Source: a plasmid
DNA length: 64,000 nucleotides
Reading direction: 5' to 3' (one strand)
Assembly (NCBI RefSeq): GCF_056712565.1
Contig: NZ_JBWXXM010000004.1
Part shown: positions 8,553 through 13,350 of the stretch, in pieces
Layout of the letters: each line of letters begins with the position of its first letter
Numbering within the stretch: position 1 is the first letter of the stretch
Translations under genes and position numbers: made by a program
The notes under the pieces: model-generated
Seen by the model: the letters and a program-made list of their open reading frames with translations, nothing else
Database searches by the model: none
What the model was told of the DNA's origin: nothing

Positions 8553-10813
8553 AAGAGCTGTGCTATGGATCTGTTTGCAGTGGAATTGAAGCCGCGAGTA
8601 TTGCCTGGGAACCGTTGGGTATGCGTCCGGCGTGGTTTGCTGAAATCGAGCCTTTTCCATCTGCCGTTCTTGCGCACCGCTGGCCCCATGTCGCCAACCT
8701 TGGCGACATGACAAAACTTGCCAAAAAAGTCCTGGCTGGGGAAATCGAATCCCCTGATGTGCTCGTCGGGGGTACGCCTTGTCAGGCATTCAGTATCGCG
8801 GGCTTACGTGGTGGGCTTGATGATGAACGCGGCGCGCTAACTTTGAAGTATGTGGAGCTTGCAAATGCAATTGACGACAAACGGTCTGAGTCCTTCCTCA
8901 AACCGACAGTTATCGTCTGGGAAAATGTCCCAGGAGTCCTGTCATCGGCAGATAACGCCTTCGGATGTTTCCTTGCCGGATTGGCTGGAGAAGATGCGCC
9001 ATTTGAACCAGGTGATCGACCTGAATCAGGAAAAAGTAACGCGTTCTGGCGGTGGGATGGCAAAACCGGTTGCCATGCTCCAAAGTGGCCGCAGTGTGGT
9101 TGTATTTATGGACCGCAGCGAAAGGTGGCCTGGAGAATCCTTGATGCCCAATACTTCGGAGTGGCACAACGACGCCGACGCGTGTTTGTTGTCGCAAGTG
9201 CTCGAACAGACCTCGATCCCGCAACGGTACTTTTTGAGTTCGAAGGCGTGCGCCGGGATATTGCGCCGAGCCGAAAAAAGAAGGAAATCGCTTCCGCCAT
9301 TATTGCAAATGGCGCTGCAATCAGTGGCGAAAGCCTAAATCCATGTCTACACGCTGACATTCCACCCGGTATGAAATCGACGAAAGCCGTAAACGCTTTC
9401 AGGATGGCAGCATTTGGGGAATATATTGACGATGAAACCGCATCGACAGTAAAGGCAAGAGATTTTAAAGATGCCACTGACCTTGCCGTTTTTAGCAGCA
9501 CAGGAGCAGGTTTTTGGTCAGAAGGGCATGGTACATTGCGGGCACGTGAGCAAGAAAGCCATGAGCATCTTGTTACATTGGCTTTTCCTGAGCGTATGAG
9601 CGGTACACAACATGCTGCAACTAAGAATACTTCACCATCTCTAATGGCTAAAAATCCAACAGCTGTTTGCTATGAAGTAAGAAACGCAGAAGTAGCTGTC
9701 CGCCGTCTTACCCCTGTCGAATGTGAAAGGCTGCAAGGTTTTCCTGATGGGCATACGTTGATCCCGACGGAAAAGCGTAAAAAAGTTAATTCAGATGAAC
9801 TGGCATATCTTCGCAATCACTATCCAGATTTAAGCGAAGAAGAGGCCGCGATGCTTGCAGCTGACGGACCGCGTTACAAAGCGATCGGCAATAGTATGGC
9901 AATACCAGTAATGCGCTGGATTGGCGATCGGATTACTAAGGCCGTATGTCGGCAGAAAGAAGGAAGTGAAACAAAAGAGCGAAAAGTTAAACCAGCGGCA
10001 GAATTCGAACGGTCCATATTCAAATGGGCTGGTGGAAAATTTGGTGTTCTGGAACAAATCTTTCGCTATTTGCCAGAAGGGAAGCGCCTGATTGAACCTT
10101 TCGTTGGTGGCGGAGCTGTCTTCATGAATGCCGGATACCAGGAAAATCTGCTAAATGATGTGAATGCTGACCTGATTAACTTTTACAAGACTCTGCAACG
10201 CGAGGCGCATTCACTTATCACTCTGGCACATCGTTTCTTCCAGGACTATAACACACAGGAAGGATACCTGGCAGTACGGAATGCGTTTAACAAACAAGTC
10301 TATGATGATTTACATCGCGCAGCGGCGTTTTTGTTCCTGAACCGACATTGTTTTAACGGATTGACGCGTTACAACCAGGCCGGTGAGTTCAATGTCGGTT
10401 ATGGGAAGTATAAAACTCCGTATTTCCCATTACAGGAGATGGAAGCCTTCCTCGGTGCGGAAGGGCGGTCTGAGTTTGTATGCGGTGATTTTGCAGCGGT
10501 GATTGAAGCTGCCGGAGAAGGAGATGTCATCTTTTGCGATCCGCCGTATGAACCGCTTCCAAATACAGAGGGATTCACGAACTATTCCGGTCATGACTTT
10601 AAGTTTGAAGAGCAAAAACGCCTGGTGTCTCTGTTGACGGATGCTCATCGTCGAGGTGCAAAGGTTCTCATTACTAACAGTGGCGCGCCAAATATCAGAG
10701 AGCTTTATCATGACAGTGGCTTCAGAGTGGAACCTCTTTTTGCCAGACGTTCTGTGTCTTGTAAGGGGGACACTCGAGGTGTAGCTCATGACGTTTTAGG
10801 TATATTGCTCTAA
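8549..10813 (+). CDS. dmt: Bifunctional DNA methyltransferase (N-terminal C5-cytosine MTase fused to a C-terminal Dam-like N6-adenine MTase)
   Basis: 754 aa. C5 motifs: [22 protein letters not shown] and the QGFP/GNS region. Dam motifs: FKWAGGK and DPPY. Confidence 0.9.
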
Positions 10814-10833
10814 TAAATTTATTAGTGTAATAT
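10804..10833 (+). promoter_or_regulatory. Bipartite C1 operator overlapping a sigma70-like promoter (Op72/Pban-like)
   Basis: ATTGCTCTAATAAATTT overlaps an inverted copy AAATTTATTAGTGTAAT. TTGCTC (-35) and TAATAT (-10) are spaced about 16 nt apart. Confidence 0.7.
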
Positions 10834-10994
10834 CGCCTCAATGAATCGTGATTTATAGAGCGATTTAGCTGTTAGCCGCGACAGGCGCGGCGGTAAGCAT
10901 GGCTGGGCCTAGCCCTCCCAGACAAACCACCGAGTTGCCAGGTTGACCATGCGCCTAAGTGGCAACGCCGAAGTGCGTTACGAGCTTCCAGTTT

Positions 10995-11020
10995 GCCCAT
11001 CTTCGGGTGGGCGTTTTTTT
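10995..11020 (+). terminator. Intrinsic terminator with UUCG tetraloop
   Basis: GCCCATC-TTCG-GGTGGGC followed by G and T7. Confidence 0.8.
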
Positions 11021-11200
11021 CAGGGTTTTCGTCATGGTTAGCGACTTTGCGGCGGTTTAGAAACTGACCATTAAAGTAAATGCAAACGATGATCTGATGA
11101 TGGTAGCGGCCTAAGAAGCCAGATGCCACGGGGTATGAGTCGTCCCCCGTCAAAAAATCGACCGCAGAGTGTCCCCGTCTGTGTATTAGGGAACGGGGAG

Positions 11201-11282
11201 GCACAACAGGTAAGGGCGCTGGTGTGATTAACCAGATGAACGAGAAGGGGCCATCTGTTGGTCAGCGTCCTTTCCTGTTGCG
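11201..11282 (+). ncRNA. Long-stem structured element A (candidate ncRNA or processing hairpin)
   Basis: The 5' arm GCACAACAGGTAAGGGCGCT pairs with the 3' arm AGCGTCCTTTCCTGTTGCG (17 of 19 pairs, including G.U). The 43-nt apical region contains its own hairpin. Confidence 0.5.
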
Positions 11283-11485
11283 TTTTCTTTTCAGCGTAAC
11301 AGCGGTGCTTAACAGCACTTTGGGTACAGTTCCACGAATTTACGGGTATATCCCGTCATGCTGAAGGCGCTAATCACGCTGGAAGCCAGGGTTGTGCATC
11401 CCCTGTTACCGAATTGCAGCCAGGGCGCGGTGCGCCGAAAAGCATACGGAGGTGGAAGCCCTCGCCGGAGACGTACCCGGCAAGT

Positions 11486-11560
11486 GATGGTGTAGCTCAG
11501 CGGTAGAGCAGTTGGCTGTTAACCAACTGGTCGGTGGTTCGAATCCATCCACCATCGCCA
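11486..11560 (+). tRNA. tRNA-Asn (GUU), CCA encoded
   Basis: Hand-folded cloverleaf: acceptor GATGGTG/CACCATC, anticodon loop CTGTTAA, T-loop TTCGAAT. Confidence 0.9.
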
Positions 11561-11562
11561 AT

Positions 11563-11638
11563 GCCGGTTTAGCTCAGTTGGTAGAGCGCCTGCCTTGTAA
11601 GCAGGATGTCAGCGGTTCGAGTCCGTTAACCGGCACCA
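11563..11638 (+). tRNA. tRNA-Thr (UGU), CCA encoded
   Basis: Acceptor GCCGGTT/AACCGGC, anticodon loop CTTGTAA, T-loop TTCGAGT. It starts 2 nt after tRNA-Asn. Confidence 0.9.
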
Positions 11639-11749
11639 ACACAACAGGTAAGGGTATTTTGCGACGTCGGAGATCGCCGTGCTTGGCAGAGGGTTCGAAT
11701 CCCTACGAAGTACCCTTACCGTTGTGATGAATGCGCAGGCTGATGCGCG
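11637..11749 (+). ncRNA. Long-stem element B with an embedded tRNA-like core, followed by a short hairpin
   Basis: An outer stem of 16 bp with a bulged A (ACAACAGGTAAGGGTA/TACCCTTACCGTTGT) encloses GCGA-cgtcGGaga-TCGC (D-arm-like) and AGGG-TTCGAAT-CCCT (T-arm-like). A GCGCA-GGCTGA-TGCGC hairpin follows. Confidence 0.55.
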
Positions 11750-11854
11750 AAAGACATTGCAGCTATTGCGGAAAAGAGCTGTTCGGCGGGGCAATTAAAC
11801 GCCCGTGAGAGTCTGAAATAACCGCAAGCCGGAGATCAGCACCGGTCATCACAA

Positions 11855-11922
11855 CACAACAGGTAAGGGCATTCTCCCTTATGGGGCTTGGCTTAAATGC
11901 ATCGAGTGCTCTTACCGTTGTG
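11855..11922 (+). ncRNA. Long-stem structured element C
   Basis: CACAACAGGTAAGGGCATTC pairs with GAGTGCTCTTACCGTTGTG (with U.G and G.U wobbles). The apical region is 28 nt and contains a CCC-ttat-GGG hairpin. Confidence 0.5.
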
Positions 11923-12058
11923 ATGAAGTGCAGCTCTTTGAAGCAACCAGAAGATAAGCATCTGGCTTCACAACATAAACCGCAGGAACGACCAATAAAC
12001 GGTAGTCCGTATGGAGAACACCCCGTTGAGGAAGAGGCCTGGCCGGAACCGTAACCGG

Positions 12059-12177
12059 CACTACAACGTTGAGAACACTGGCGTAACGGGGTCATATCCC
12101 AATCTACGAATAAATGTTGCGTTGCAGCGTGACAACCAGTGTTCTCAACATTGTGGTGAATGCACAGGCTGATGTGC
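12059..12177 (+). ncRNA. Long-stem structured element D plus a short hairpin
   Basis: A 23-position stem (22 paired): CACTACAACGTTGAGAACACTGG with CCAGTGTTCTCAACATTGTGGTG. The apical module GTAACGGGGTCATATCCCAATCTAC is shared with E. A GCACA-GGCTGA-TGTGC hairpin follows. Confidence 0.6.
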
Positions 12178-12335
12178 CGCAACTACAGTAGTGCGCGCTT
12201 TGCGGGGCTTGCTACAACCCTGTGTCGGAGTTCAGCACCGACCATCACAGTTTGATTCTCTGGCATGAGCATAACGCTGAAATAAGTCCAGTCTGGTGCG
12301 GCCCGATCACCCGCCGTTAGCTCCACGAAACGGAG

Positions 12336-12435
12336 CACGTAACAGGTAAGAGCATTCTCCTGTAACGGGTTCATATCCCAATCTACAGGTCCACCAGGAA
12401 TGCTCTTTCCGTTGCGGTGAATGCGGCTAAGCGCA
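12336..12435 (+). ncRNA. Long-stem structured element E plus a short hairpin
   Basis: CACGTAACAGGTAAGAGCATTC pairs with GAATGCTCTTTCCGTTGCGGTG. The apical hairpin is CCTGTA-acGGGttcatatCCCaatc-TACAGG. Element E differs from D by five double compensatory stem changes. Confidence 0.6.
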
Positions 12436-12565
12436 CGCGGAACAGTAAAAACAATCCTCCTTAATGGTTAAACATTCCGGCGTTAATTGTTAACTGGTTA
12501 ACGTCACCGGGAGGCACTCGGCACCGCAATCTAATAAATATGTCACTTTTATTGAGGGATAACCA

Positions 12566-13000
12566 ATGTTCGGTAAATTGTTCGGCAAGAAAGTCGCTTC
12601 TGCAAAAGTAGAGCTGAAAAAAGTTGAGAATCGCGATCTGATGGAGGCCATCATCGGTGGCTGTTTGTTGGTGTCTGCCGCTGATGGTGAAATCGAAAAA
12701 GAAGAAACAGCGAAACTTGATCAGCTTGTCCGCTCTAATCCGCGTCTTAGTCATTTTGGTAACGAAATTACTGCAACAATTACCCGCTTTACCGAGCAAC
12801 TGGAAGCTGGCTTCCGTGTTGGTCGCATGAATATCCTTCGCGAAATTGAAGATATCAAAAACGATCCAAAAGAAGCGGAAGAAGTATTCGTTAACATGCT
12901 GACAATTGCAGAAGCGGACGGTGAAATCGAGCCAGCAGAACACAAAGTACTGGAAGAAGTAGGCCGTCGTTTAGGTCTTCGTGTGGAAGATTATCTGTAA
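12566..13000 (+). CDS. tciA: TerB-like (tellurite/colicin resistance family) protein
   Basis: 144 aa. Acidic repeats ..AADGEI(E/D)K/PxE.. are typical of TerB, and the position matches P1 tciA. Confidence 0.8.
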   Translation: MFGKLFGKKVASAKVELKKVENRDLMEAIIGGCLLVSAADGEIEKEETAKLDQLVRSNPRLSHFGNEITATITRFTEQLEAGFRVGRMNILREIEDIKNDPKEAEEVFVNMLTIAEADGEIEPAEHKVLEEVGRRLGLRVEDYL

Positions 13001-13274: not shown

Positions 13275-13350
13275 GGCCCTTTAGCTCAGTGGTTAGAGCT
13301 GGCGACTCATAATCGCACGGTCACCGGTTCAAGTCCGGTAGGGGCCACCA
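13275..13350 (+). tRNA. tRNA with CAU anticodon (Ile2/lysidine-type or Met), CCA encoded
   Basis: Acceptor GGCCCTT/AGGGGCC, loop CTCATAA, T-loop TTCAAGT. The P1 counterpart is annotated tRNA-Ile. Confidence 0.85.

Follow-up and report, generated by a model that had tools for sequence, protein, structure and literature searches.

What occupies the interval between dmt and tciA in a P1-like phage? The window studied here, a contiguous 64-kb stretch of DNA, is a P1-like phage, and in this interval a first-pass annotation had seen no credible ORF and five long-stem RNA-like elements. RefSeq places two minus-strand genes there in P1, plp and upl, across units C-E, and to that extent the statement about ORFs was too strong; these ORFs nevertheless appear to be spurious, and judged by sequence they are probably not credible genes. 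In P1, plp overlaps trnT, and its start and end differ among the window, a P1 derivative and D6. Neither plp nor upl has a Pfam match, and PGAP calls nothing at their position in hundreds of RefSeq replicons. Two PHROG families with no assigned function match upl; they probably derive from these phage annotations themselves. Literature searches on P1 plp/upl, tmRNA-like phage RNAs, the P1 transcriptome and the exact sequences and peptides found nothing relevant. The interval instead contains five hairpins on the plus strand, downstream of the C1-controlled ban promoters, within the following arrangement.

10788..10833, plus strand: P1ban/P2ban promoters with Op72 operators, C1-controlled, mapped from the RefSeq P1 annotation
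10928..11020, plus strand: "dicF-like region", a P1 misc_feature mapped onto the window
11025..11201, plus strand: tmRNA-like tag module, comprising GUUUUCGU, PK1, the tag frame, PK2 and PK3
11036-11077, plus strand: PK1 of the tag module
11082-11114, plus strand: tag frame of 10 codons with no start codon, GCA..UAA, encoding ANDDLMMVAA*
11127-11163, plus strand: PK2 of the tag module
11164-11201, plus strand: PK3 of the tag module
11202-11282, plus strand: stem of unit A, 20-23 bp with an apex of 28-37 nt, directly 3' of the tag module
11486..11638, plus strand: tRNA-Asn(GUU) and tRNA-Thr(UGU), found by ARAGORN; 74-75 bits with the Rfam tRNA model
11640..11748, plus strand: unit B, with stem 11640-11726, an AUGAAU tail and a hairpin at 11733-11748
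11829..11855, plus strand: spacer hairpin CCGG-AGAUCAGCA-CCGG followed by UCAUCACAAC, of direct-repeat family D2, with covarying stems
11855..11965, plus strand: unit C, with stem 11855-11922, a 29-nt apex and type-2 tail hairpins at 11929-11945 and 11947-11965
12059..12177, plus strand: unit D, with stem 12059-12158, a GUGAAU tail and a hairpin at 12162-12177
12225..12241, plus strand: second spacer hairpin, UCGG-AGUUCAGCA-CCGA
12338..12440, plus strand: unit E, with stem 12338-12416, a 40-nt apex and a GUGAAUGC tail
12413..12528, plus strand: STnc100/PasD-like leader, upstream of tciA and sharing its first bases with the 3' arm of unit E

Rereading the sequence placed the five units where the first-pass annotation had them; its list of elements had left out the tmRNA-like module joined to unit A. 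The P1ban/P2ban promoters and Op72 probably drive the entire island. The Op72 operator sequence ATTGCTCTAATAAATTT lies at 10804-10820, inside inverted repeat I3, and no sigma-70-like promoters were found inside the island. A terminator scan detected an intrinsic-terminator-like hairpin and T run at 10995-11020, closing the "dicF-like region"; many Pban transcripts may therefore end before the units, which counts against the processing model that we favour below. In a CRISPRi screen (PMC10695390), P1 did not need the region for lytic growth, which also speaks against that model. The units are separated by non-coding spacers of approximately 100-200 nt. In the spacer at 11829..11855, which is 97-98.6% identical to lambdoid phages, UCAUCACAAC is the perfect complement of GUUGUGAUGA at 11721-11730. 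Unit C is missing from P1 itself, which has A, B, D and E only and covers the query in two pieces.

The stems in the window are 19-23 bp long, that of unit D corresponding to inverted repeat I1 (23 nt, 91% complementary). As plus-strand RNA the units fold with minimum free energies of -36 to -56 kcal/mol (z = -3.5 to -6.1); none of 200 shuffles folded as well, and the minus strand folds more poorly than the plus strand for all five. The 5' arm motif CACAACAGGTAAGRGC, with up to three mismatches, has six matches in the 64-kb window against 0.6 expected, and the 3' arm with its tail has four against 0.21; in each scan all matches except one fall within 11.2-12.4 kb. The compensatory changes reported in the first-pass annotation could be derived again. 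Compared by hand past the CAAC/GUUG base, D and E differ by five double substitutions (U-A/G-C, G-C/A-U, A-U/G-C, C-G/U-A and G-C/C-G) and at one position where U-A in one unit faces U.U in the other. Covariation is also seen in the short hairpins of units B and D (GCGCA/UGCGC vs GCACA/UGUGC) and in the inner hairpins of units D and E (CGUA/UACG vs UGUA/UACA), the latter being CGUA-ACGGGGUCAUAUCCCAAUC-UACG within the 54-nt apex of unit D and its counterpart in the apex of unit E.

These units are genuine members of a large unannotated family of structured RNA modules. The family has a conserved 6-bp base, CACAAC/GUUGUG, which in most cases is topped by a bulged A and a pair that is either U.U or U-A; an upper stem of 10-17 bp, freely covarying, comes next. 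Beyond the base, a (G/A)UGAAU tail, single-stranded, leads to a short hairpin. Among 45 distinct stems, double-sided changes occur at 12 of 18 pairs, and none of 500 shuffles attains the observed values; covariation beyond a shuffled control had been set beforehand as the comparison on which the claim would fall, and the related elements exceed it. The structure-registered alignment A2 is 95.7% paired, a figure biased by the fitting of A2 to the stem, and slid controls are 38-64% paired; the double-change counts, the slid controls, the strand test and the comparison of own with foreign arms are independent of that fitting. In the last of these, arms pair better with their own partner than with the arms of other units (10.9 vs 6.5). 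Covariation is limited to the upper stem, pairs 8-10 being invariant and pairs 5-7 changing solely to G.U. The invariance of CAAC/GUUG is partly built in by scans that demanded this motif; in unbiased, tail-defined contexts, approximately 70% have GUU preceding GUG. The proposal of selection on structure is upheld by these results, but its corollary that primary sequence is free of selection is not, since the stem base and the tail are constrained.

The sense-strand stem is the more stable in 58 of 68 distinct units, owing to G.U asymmetry (Wilcoxon p = 1.4e-9), and the antisense-strand stem in six, which indicates an RNA element. Together with the neighboring tRNAs, which lie on the same strand as the unit in 39 cases and on the opposite strand in none, this bears out the plus-strand RNA reading. 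Relative to flanking ORFs, 49 cases are same/same and four are opposite/opposite.

The family is present in more than 100 phage records. Its carriers are lambdoid (including Stx-type), T1-like, N4-like, SSU5-like, Sashavirus and Ackermannviridae phages of the Enterobacterales. The elements are copies of one another, as first proposed, but they are not peculiar to P1: the module is common to the lambdoid, T1-like, SSU5-like, Sashavirus and Ackermannviridae phages. Units occur in 771 of 5426 complete E. coli genomes (approximately 14%), with a median of one place per genome and a maximum of three. There are 607 places on plasmids, those checked being phage-plasmids, and 232 on chromosomes, of which the two inspected are both in lambdoid prophages. 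A 16-mer scan of 185,579 genomes gave 120 matches, of which approximately 110 were due to chance; the genuine units were from Serratia, Pseudocitrobacter, Erwinia, Klebsiella, Pantoea, Rahnella and Kluyvera. Genuine units also lay on one scaffold labeled Martelella alba and in one Geobacteraceae metagenome-assembled genome, which are possible contamination or misassignment. The sites are long untranslated operon leaders, namely P1 Pban, lambdoid PL and the lambdoid Q-to-holin late leader, and in phage Sasha the gap separating structural genes. At 13 loci the unit begins 1 nt after the CCA of tRNA-Thr, as unit B does in the window; in pJN2-26 a unit overlaps the CCA of tRNA-Asn, and in D6 and pJN2-26 units begin, as judged by eye, 1-3 nt after tRNA-Ser. 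However, 63 of 102 occurrences have no tRNA inside 1.5 kb, and tRNA 3' processing therefore cannot be the general role.

The helix is the constant part of the module. The apex varies from 5 to 129 nt and is of more than 30 unrelated kinds. The idea of tRNA-derived decoys fits only a minority: a canonical T-arm, with a stem of 5 bp and a UUCRA loop, is present in six of 86 distinct apices. Within the window, the apex of unit B is an anticodon-arm-less tRNA-like module with its T-arm AGGGUUCGAAUCCCU at 11690-11704; a T-arm is absent from the apices of A and C and degenerate in D and E (GUCAUAU/UUCAUAU). Clear tRNA mimics, consisting of a D-arm-like hairpin and a canonical T-arm without an anticodon arm, are found in unit B, L039, Madison L007, L043, L118 and L121. 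The inner hairpin ACGGGNUCAUAUCCCAAUC of D and E recurs in mEp460, L033, L074 and L092, and some units have a loop of 5-9 nt and no cargo (L004 3939-3986, L025, L062, L075 and L103).

The family could not be assigned to a known class, in agreement with the first-pass annotation, there being no match in Rfam 15. At E <= 10, the window and seven related loci yielded only tRNAs, a subthreshold STnc100, a weak tmRNA and chance miRNA-precursor matches on hairpins. The tRNA cloverleaf searches (ARAGORN and RF00005) gave only the three true tRNAs in the window and no unit even at E <= 10, and the same was found in the related loci. The STnc100 model RF02076 matches 12413..12528 partially, with 39.8 bits (gathering 47) and E = 2e-6. 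The STnc100/PasD prophage sRNAs share with the window the GGUGAAUGC...CACCGCA leader, which begins within the 3' arm of unit E, and they occur together with units in prophage late regions; RF02076, however, spans sequence past the stem and not the long-stem unit. A preprint on Pas sRNAs deals with terminator-bearing sRNAs and STnc100, not with long stems. In the Qin prophage of E. coli K-12 an E-type tail follows dicF, but there is no full unit. A boxA/nut reading of the type-2 tail was rejected: GCUCUUUGAAGCAA is rrn-boxA-like, yet it is not conserved elsewhere and forms the loop of a UUGC/GCAA hairpin.

The tag module upstream of unit A is previously undescribed and was found in 265 phage records. 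Its eight distinct tag peptides have the form AND[DNE]xx[LM]x[AV]A, with a constant 10 codons and a TAA or TAG stop, and third-position changes in the tag frames are synonymous. Like the coding part of the two-piece (permuted) tmRNAs (RF04321, RF01849), it has a resume motif, AUAAAUGCAAACGA, a start-less frame of 10 codons ending in AA or VA and a stop, and covarying pseudoknots, one upstream of the frame and two downstream. Two features of tmRNA are present: a resume codon with a short start-less tag frame that ends in hydrophobic-Ala-Ala, ARAGORN recognizing a "resume consensus," and pseudoknots on both sides of the frame. The PK2 stem covaries (CG/UA, GC/AU, AU/GC) and its loop pairs downstream (CCGA/UCGG, CCAG/CUGG or GUCG/CGAC); PK1 and PK3 are conserved. 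These pseudoknot comparisons were made partly by eye. The Rfam two-piece tmRNA models match the module through the resume and tag region with 24-27 bits against gathering thresholds of 47-50. Unlike a tmRNA, the module lacks a recognizable tRNA-like domain, G3.U70 or CCA, and the long-stem units have no counterpart in tmRNA. In all phages checked, a long-stem hairpin or an odd tRNA-like element lies directly 3' of the tag module, and in lambdoid late leaders a unit also precedes it, with its 3' arm running into GUUUUCG.

From the structure, strand, covariation, distribution and genomic context observed for the units, we tentatively propose, at somewhat less than an even chance, that they serve a polycistronic untranslated RNA island as stems of the leader/trailer type, for processing and insulation. 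They would be transcribed on the plus strand from the C1-repressed ban promoters, each forming a leader/trailer-type helix around an interchangeable apical "cargo," in an island that would run from a DicF-like sRNA through the tmRNA-like tag RNA, tRNA-Asn, tRNA-Thr and the apical small RNAs to the STnc100-like leader of tciA-ban. The nucleases and the consequences of cleavage we infer as follows. Host RNase III would cut the helices of approximately two turns, and/or RNase E would cut the AU-rich tail; cutting would separate the modules, fix the tRNA 3' end, free or cap the apical RNAs and let the downstream mRNA turn over independently of the stable RNAs. RNase III cuts the leader and trailer stalks of rRNA, the intercistronic hairpins of T7 early RNA and, in the metY-nusA-infB operon, a hairpin immediately 3' of the metY tRNA. 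The units resemble these stems in forming an approximately two-turn helix from sequences that flank a cargo RNA, in lying in polycistronic untranslated RNA adjoining tRNAs, and in having an internal bulge or mismatch; at 17-27 bp across the family, the helices have the length and mostly Watson-Crick pairing of RNase III substrates (approximately 20 bp or more). Action through host enzymes of the RNase III kind fits a distribution across unrelated phages. The units differ in that their cargo is tiny and interchangeable, that they are arrayed in repeats and swapped between phage families, and that their base and tail are conserved in sequence; literature searches found no paper on unit cleavage or rnc-dependence. 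RNase III makes few demands on sequence; that the base, bulged A and tail are conserved in unrelated phages therefore counts against the model and suggests either a more specific partner or homogenization by recombination.

A more specific partner is the essence of one alternative, which we regard as possible but a good deal less probable, that the units are scaffolded functional small RNAs in which the base, bulged A and tail dock one host factor and the variable apex does the work, for example as a tRNA-elbow mimic, a decoy for tRNA-targeting defenses or tRNA enzymes, or a kissing-loop regulator. It accounts for a stem base kept by sequence without covariation, for the tRNA-mimic apices, for the recurrence of the D/E inner hairpin, and for the linkage of units to phage tRNA clusters, which are countermeasures to tRNA-cleaving defenses. 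The arrangement would resemble that of a Y RNA, with its Ro-binding stem and tRNA-like module: as in the bacterial Y RNAs (YrlA, RF02553), the 5' and 3' ends form a long stem with a bulged nucleotide, and some apices mimic the tRNA elbow. Unlike Y RNAs, most apices are not tRNA-like, and where a T-arm is present it stacks on the long stem as on an acceptor stem, whereas in YrlA the long stem takes the place of the anticodon stem. The YrlA model matched no unit, giving weak matches of 22-26 bits (gathering 69) on true tRNA genes, and the names rsr and rtcB are absent from the annotations of the inspected loci. The cargo-free units, an apex diversity too great for one shared target, the failure of the tRNA models, and the part that the scans played in CAAC/GUUG invariance also weigh against a scaffold, and we know of no candidate binding protein. 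That the units are decaying tRNA pseudogenes, or that plp and upl are real minus-strand genes palindromic by chance, is the least probable reading. The T-arms retained by a few apices, the RefSeq annotation and the PHROG matches of upl speak for it, but neutral decay would not produce compensatory changes, most apices are unlike tRNA, and the plp overlap with trnT, the variable ORF ends, the lack of Pfam matches and the silence of PGAP all argue otherwise.

The tag module suggests a split or degenerate phage tmRNA, in which it would be the mRNA-like domain, the flanking arms would pair like P2 and the tRNA-like apices would supply the tRNA-like domain. Its body architecture, the two-piece model matches, the element directly after it in every phage checked and the lambdoid late-leader arms, which could pair across the tag ring in a tmRNA topology, are consistent with this improbable scheme. 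However, no tRNA-like domain, acceptor stem with G3.U70 or 3' CCA was found for the tag module and unit A; ARAGORN in default and -ps modes returned no tmRNA tRNA-like domain, and the domains returned at 80% thresholds were unconvincing and swamped by false positives. The RNA of the T1-like phage Sf11 appears to begin exactly at GAUAGUUUUCG, diverged arms pair with their own partner and not across modules, and units B-E of the window are distant from the tag module. A long-range helix, 11033-11226, from a permissive scan is G.U-rich and occurs only in identical P1-like sequences, and we do not rely on it. In a more speculative version, also doubtful, the island would be a phage "translation-rescue kit" and the tag module a working tmRNA analog without a conventional tRNA-like domain. 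The long-stem units, their anticodon-arm-less tRNA-mimic apices included, would provide that domain in cis or in trans, their arms pairing around the tag ring like P2, and would be the structural links in a modular, split tmRNA system present alongside the phage tRNAs; alternatively, the tag module could be a decoy for SmpB or the ribosome. Very unlikely, finally, is an origin at the DNA level alone, as MITE-like inverted repeats or recombination linkers that shuffle tRNA/ncRNA cassettes and have no RNA function. The terminal inverted repeats CACAAC...GUUGUG, the near identity of P1-like and lambdoid spacers in otherwise unrelated phages, and the presence or absence of unit C among P1 relatives, as arm recombination predicts, would fit. 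Like REP, BIME, ERIC and MITE elements, the units are imperfect palindromes of 50-160 nt, intergenic and transcribed as hairpins; unlike them, they have a single orientation, G.U asymmetry, covarying stems and a variable centre, and in the places inspected are confined to phages, prophages and phage-plasmids. With approximately one site per E. coli genome they are not scattered, as the first-pass annotation required of anything other than a REP/ERIC-type host repeat. The excess of G.U over A.C on the sense strand, strict co-orientation with tRNAs, mostly co-oriented operons and pairing preserved by compensatory changes tell further against this origin, and no target-site duplications were noticed. 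Integron attC sites were rejected, since the ends CACAAC / GUUGUG(G/A) misfit the core RYYYAAC ... GUURRRY and the spacers are not gene cassettes.

P1 is among the most studied phages, yet the approximately 1.7 kb from dmt to tciA appears to be misannotated, with plp and upl in place of RNA. The RNA modules occupy exactly the untranslated slots where phages keep their tRNAs. If the units do constitute a shared, host-factor-dependent processing or scaffold module, this would account for the way in which phages assemble cassettes of tRNAs and small RNAs and pass them to one another, and the stem base, bulged A and tail would offer a defined experimental handle. The presence of the tag RNA in so many phage records also raises the question of whether phages interfere with, or replace, ribosome rescue.

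The five long-stem hairpins between dmt and tciA belong to a new, unannotated family of structured-RNA modules. Sequence reading and stem scans confirmed all five units, A to E, where the first-pass annotation had placed them as paralogous RNA-like stems. The compensatory changes it had described between the D and E stems, the B and D tail hairpins and the D and E inner hairpins were likewise recovered when re-derived from the sequence. The observation is genuine, and the family is wider than was then recognised. As plus-strand RNA, units A-E fold with z scores of -3.5 to -6.1, which none of 200 shuffles equalled, and every unit folds more poorly on the minus strand. Window scans found the 5' arm motif and the 3' arm-plus-tail motif 10- to 20-fold above shuffles, with all matches except one per scan lying within 11.2-12.4 kb; a permissive scan of the whole window found no further CACAAC-type stems.

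The window derives from a P1-like phage or phage-plasmid, and BLAST of 10800-12600 gives 96.9-99.1% identity to P1 isolates, RCS47 and JL22. The island is laid out as follows.

10788-10833, at the end of dmt: C1-controlled P1ban/P2ban promoters and Op72 operators, mapped from RefSeq P1
10928-11020: 'dicF-like region' of P1
11025-11201: tmRNA-like tag module, just upstream of unit A (tag frame 11082-11114)
11202-11282, plus strand: unit A
11486-11560: tRNA-Asn (ARAGORN and Rfam)
11563-11638: tRNA-Thr (ARAGORN and Rfam)
11640-11748, plus strand: unit B
11763-12374, minus strand: plp and upl of the P1 annotation, overlying units C-E
11855-11965, plus strand: unit C
12059-12177, plus strand: unit D
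12338-12440, plus strand: unit E
12413-12528: STnc100/PasD-like leader
13275-13350: tRNA-Met/Ile2 (ARAGORN and Rfam)

In RefSeq P1 the order after P1ban/P2ban is 'dicF-like region', trnA, trnT, the minus-strand ORFs plp and upl, tciA-C, trnI and ban. The 3' end of the 'dicF-like region' is a strong intrinsic-terminator-like hairpin (GCCCAUCUUCGGGUGGGC followed by U7). Seen from the ban promoters, the remainder of the island lies beyond this hairpin, and its RNAs would therefore require read-through. Just before tciA, GCAAUCUAAUAAAUAUG at 12526-12542 is similar to the C1 operator AUUGCUCUAAUAAAUUU at 10804-10820, which suggests a predicted second C1-controlled site; the P7 annotation has two C1 sites in the corresponding region. 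The unannotated stretch of about 200 nt from unit A to tRNA-Asn (11283-11485) holds more hairpins, such as UUACGGGUAUAUCCCGUCA, similar to the D/E inner hairpin. The STnc100/PasD-like leader starts within the 3' arm of unit E, and its GCGGUG has two possible partners, the E 5' arm or CACCGCA at 12522-12528. In the Qin prophage of E. coli K-12 (L258, ~24455-24495) the same GGUGAAUGCGGCU(A/G)AGCGCACGCGGAACAG sequence as in the unit E region lies after dicF and before dicB.

The ORFs plp and upl are probably annotation artefacts, not credible genes. In P1, plp overlaps the end of trnT, and both its start and its end are placed differently in the window, in D6 and in a derivative of P1. There is no Pfam match for plp, upl matches only PHROGs of unknown function, and PGAP calls neither. 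In a CRISPRi screen, trnT, plp and upl came out as non-essential (PMC10695390).

To derive the anatomy of a unit, 120 IMG/VR loci were retrieved by a tail-only pattern and the whole set of loci was scanned with our own script; 68 tail-oriented units and about 86 apices (the sequences enclosed by the long stem) could be distinguished. The consensus, from the base upward, is as follows.

Base: 6 bp, CACAAC/GUUGUG
Bulged A: present in 30 of 48 units checked
Above base and bulge: GG/CC, then U.U or U-A
Upper stem: near AAGAGCAUUG/CAGUGCUCUU
3' of the stem: (G/A)UGAAU tail and short hairpin
One tail type: GCGCA-GGCUGA-UGCGC
Other tail type: UUGC-loop-GCAA, then CCAGA-AGAUAAGCA-UCUGG

The units are RNA-level, sense-strand, modular hairpins under structural selection. 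Among 45 distinct registered stems, in an alignment fitted to structure, 95.7% of cells are paired and two-sided changes occur at 12 of 18 pairs (65 cells). None of 500 shuffles equals the stems on any one of the five measures used, and sliding the partner by 1-3 columns lowers pairing to 38-64%. Two tests independent of the fitting agree: across about 14 distinct stem types a 5' arm scores 10.9 for pairing with its own 3' arm and 6.5 when the partner comes from a different unit, and 58 of the 68 units have the more stable stem on the tail-defined strand (p = 1.4e-9, with a median difference of -4.25 kcal/mol), the unit selection step having scored G.U and A.C alike. The upper stem covaries, and the basal pairs are invariant or show G.U transitions only, an invariance partly imposed by the motif filter of the scan; GUU precedes GUG in ~70% of the unbiased, tail-only contexts.

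The apex is cargo. It ranges from 5 to 129 nt and comes in more than 30 unrelated kinds, and some units are plain hairpins with loops of 5-9 nt. Only 6 of the 86 apices contain a canonical T-arm, among them that of unit B, where a D-arm-like hairpin and the T-arm AGGGUUCGAAUCCCU are stacked on the long stem without an anticodon arm. The inner hairpin ACGGGNUCAUAUCCCAAUC is common to D, E and units of lambdoid phages. Rfam and ARAGORN called no unit as a tRNA, YrlA or another Rfam family.

The tag module, of which we found no description in the literature, carries a tag frame without a start codon, GCAAACGAUGAUCUGAUGAUGGUAGCGGCCUAA, reading ANDDLMMVAA and a stop. The E. coli ssrA tag is ANDENYALAA. 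Eight peptides occur across phages, each of 10 codons: the P1 form and ANDDVVLMAA, ANDNQYLAVA, ANDNTFLAVA, ANDNAFLMAA, ANDDLMLMAA, ANDEQFLAVA and ANDNLMMVAA. Third codon positions differ synonymously among the variant frames, and the stop is conserved. Upstream of the frame come a pseudoknot-like element and an AUAAAU motif, and downstream of it two pseudoknots with covarying stems. The two-piece tmRNA models of Rfam align over the resume motif, tag and first downstream pseudoknot, scoring only 24-27 bits, and ARAGORN, default and relaxed, found no tRNA-like domain, G3.U70 pair or CCA end. BLAST placed the module in 265 phage records from at least five groups (Ackermannviridae, N4-like, T1-like, P1-like and SSU5-like), usually 5' of tRNA clusters; one lambdoid prophage (L010) carries it too, as do IMG/VR loci whose late leaders are of lambdoid type. 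Six records of the BLAST set were inspected, and in each the module shares the tRNA strand and stands either before tRNA clusters or within a large non-coding region. In every phage examined it stands directly 5' of a long-stem unit (unit A in P1) or of an odd tRNA-like element, and unit A is therefore probably part of the tag RNA; in lambdoid late leaders a unit also precedes the module. The odd tRNA-like genes adjoining it (Bp4, L012 1673-1751; Serratia phage Kevin, L015 1281-1370; PhiSH19, L014 ~1940-2010) show U3.G70 or U3.U70 in their acceptor stems, and after the discriminator base ACA takes the place of CCA; ARAGORN calls two of the three 'tRNA-Cys(aca)'.

The long-stem family is confined to phages of Enterobacterales. 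By BLAST, parts of the array are matched in over 100 phage records, including the P1-like P1, P7, D6, SJ46 and RCS47, lambdoid and Stx phages, the P22-like SPN9CC, Sashavirus, SSU5-like Klebsiella phage-plasmids and 157-kb Ackermannviridae. Unit C with its tail is found in 771 of 5426 complete E. coli genomes, at 607 plasmid and 232 chromosomal places, none with any RefSeq annotation; the two chromosomal places inspected both fall inside lambdoid prophages, with the Q antiterminator on one side and holin on the other. A median of 1 place per genome and a maximum of 3 rule out a REP/ERIC-type host repeat, a possibility raised in the first-pass annotation.

The units sit in long untranslated parts of operons: the Pban leader of P1, the PL leader in mEp460 and, in SPN9CC, just upstream of N, the PR' late leader immediately 3' of tR', a gap among the structural genes of phage Sasha, 3' of its major head gene, and between tRNAs in pJN2-26 and D6. 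Their strand matches that of nearby tRNAs in 39 cases and opposes it in none (63 have no tRNA within 1.5 kb); with the flanking ORFs, 49 are same/same and 4 opposite/opposite. In 13 loci 1 nt separates the tRNA-Thr CCA from the start of unit B, and in pJN2-26 a unit overlaps the tRNA-Asn CCA. Its untranslated RNA islands also house tRNAs, a tmRNA-like RNA, a DicF-like sRNA and an STnc100-like leader, the units being embedded among them.

P1 itself (L001, compared with 11727-11922) has four units, lacking unit C and the B-C spacer, with the B stem joined to the C tail, a pattern that fits a loss or gain of sequence through recombination of the repeated arms. The B-C spacer has 97-98.6% identity to lambdoid and Stx phages. 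At the end of unit B and its tail, GUUGUGAUGA (11721-11730) is the perfect complement of UCAUCACAAC (11846-11855) just before unit C, so that each GUUGUG has two possible CACAAC partners and an alternative helix could close the spacer; a weaker version is seen from D to E. A second conserved motif, found in the spacers at 11829-11845, 11947-11965 and 12225-12241 and in four other loci (L004, L006, L008 and L009), comprises a covarying 4-5 bp stem (CCGG/CCGG, CCAGA/UCUGG or UCGG/CCGA), a 9-nt loop AGAU(N)AGCA and then YCAYCACAAC; the SPN9CC copy is located immediately before gene N.

Because very different phages share the units, host factors must mediate their function, which itself we infer. 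We tentatively favor processing or insulating stems that would be cut by RNase III and/or RNase E, since helix length, leader/trailer topology, the place right after tRNAs and known precedents fit, although we would put this at somewhat below an even chance. The sequence-conserved base, bulge and tail point to a more specific partner, and a scaffolded functional RNA docking one host factor is an appreciable, if lesser, possibility. It is improbable that the units work as part of a split tmRNA. A DNA repeat is still more improbable, given the strand asymmetry, orientation and covariation, and covariation together with the ORF evidence makes a pseudogene or protein-coding origin the least probable of all.

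Mechanistically, the long-stem family is most likely a variant of the known processing hairpins, from which it differs by an unexplained sequence-specific base. It has an unexpected tie to a tmRNA-like RNA, and a split tmRNA, if true, would be the most interesting of all the readings.
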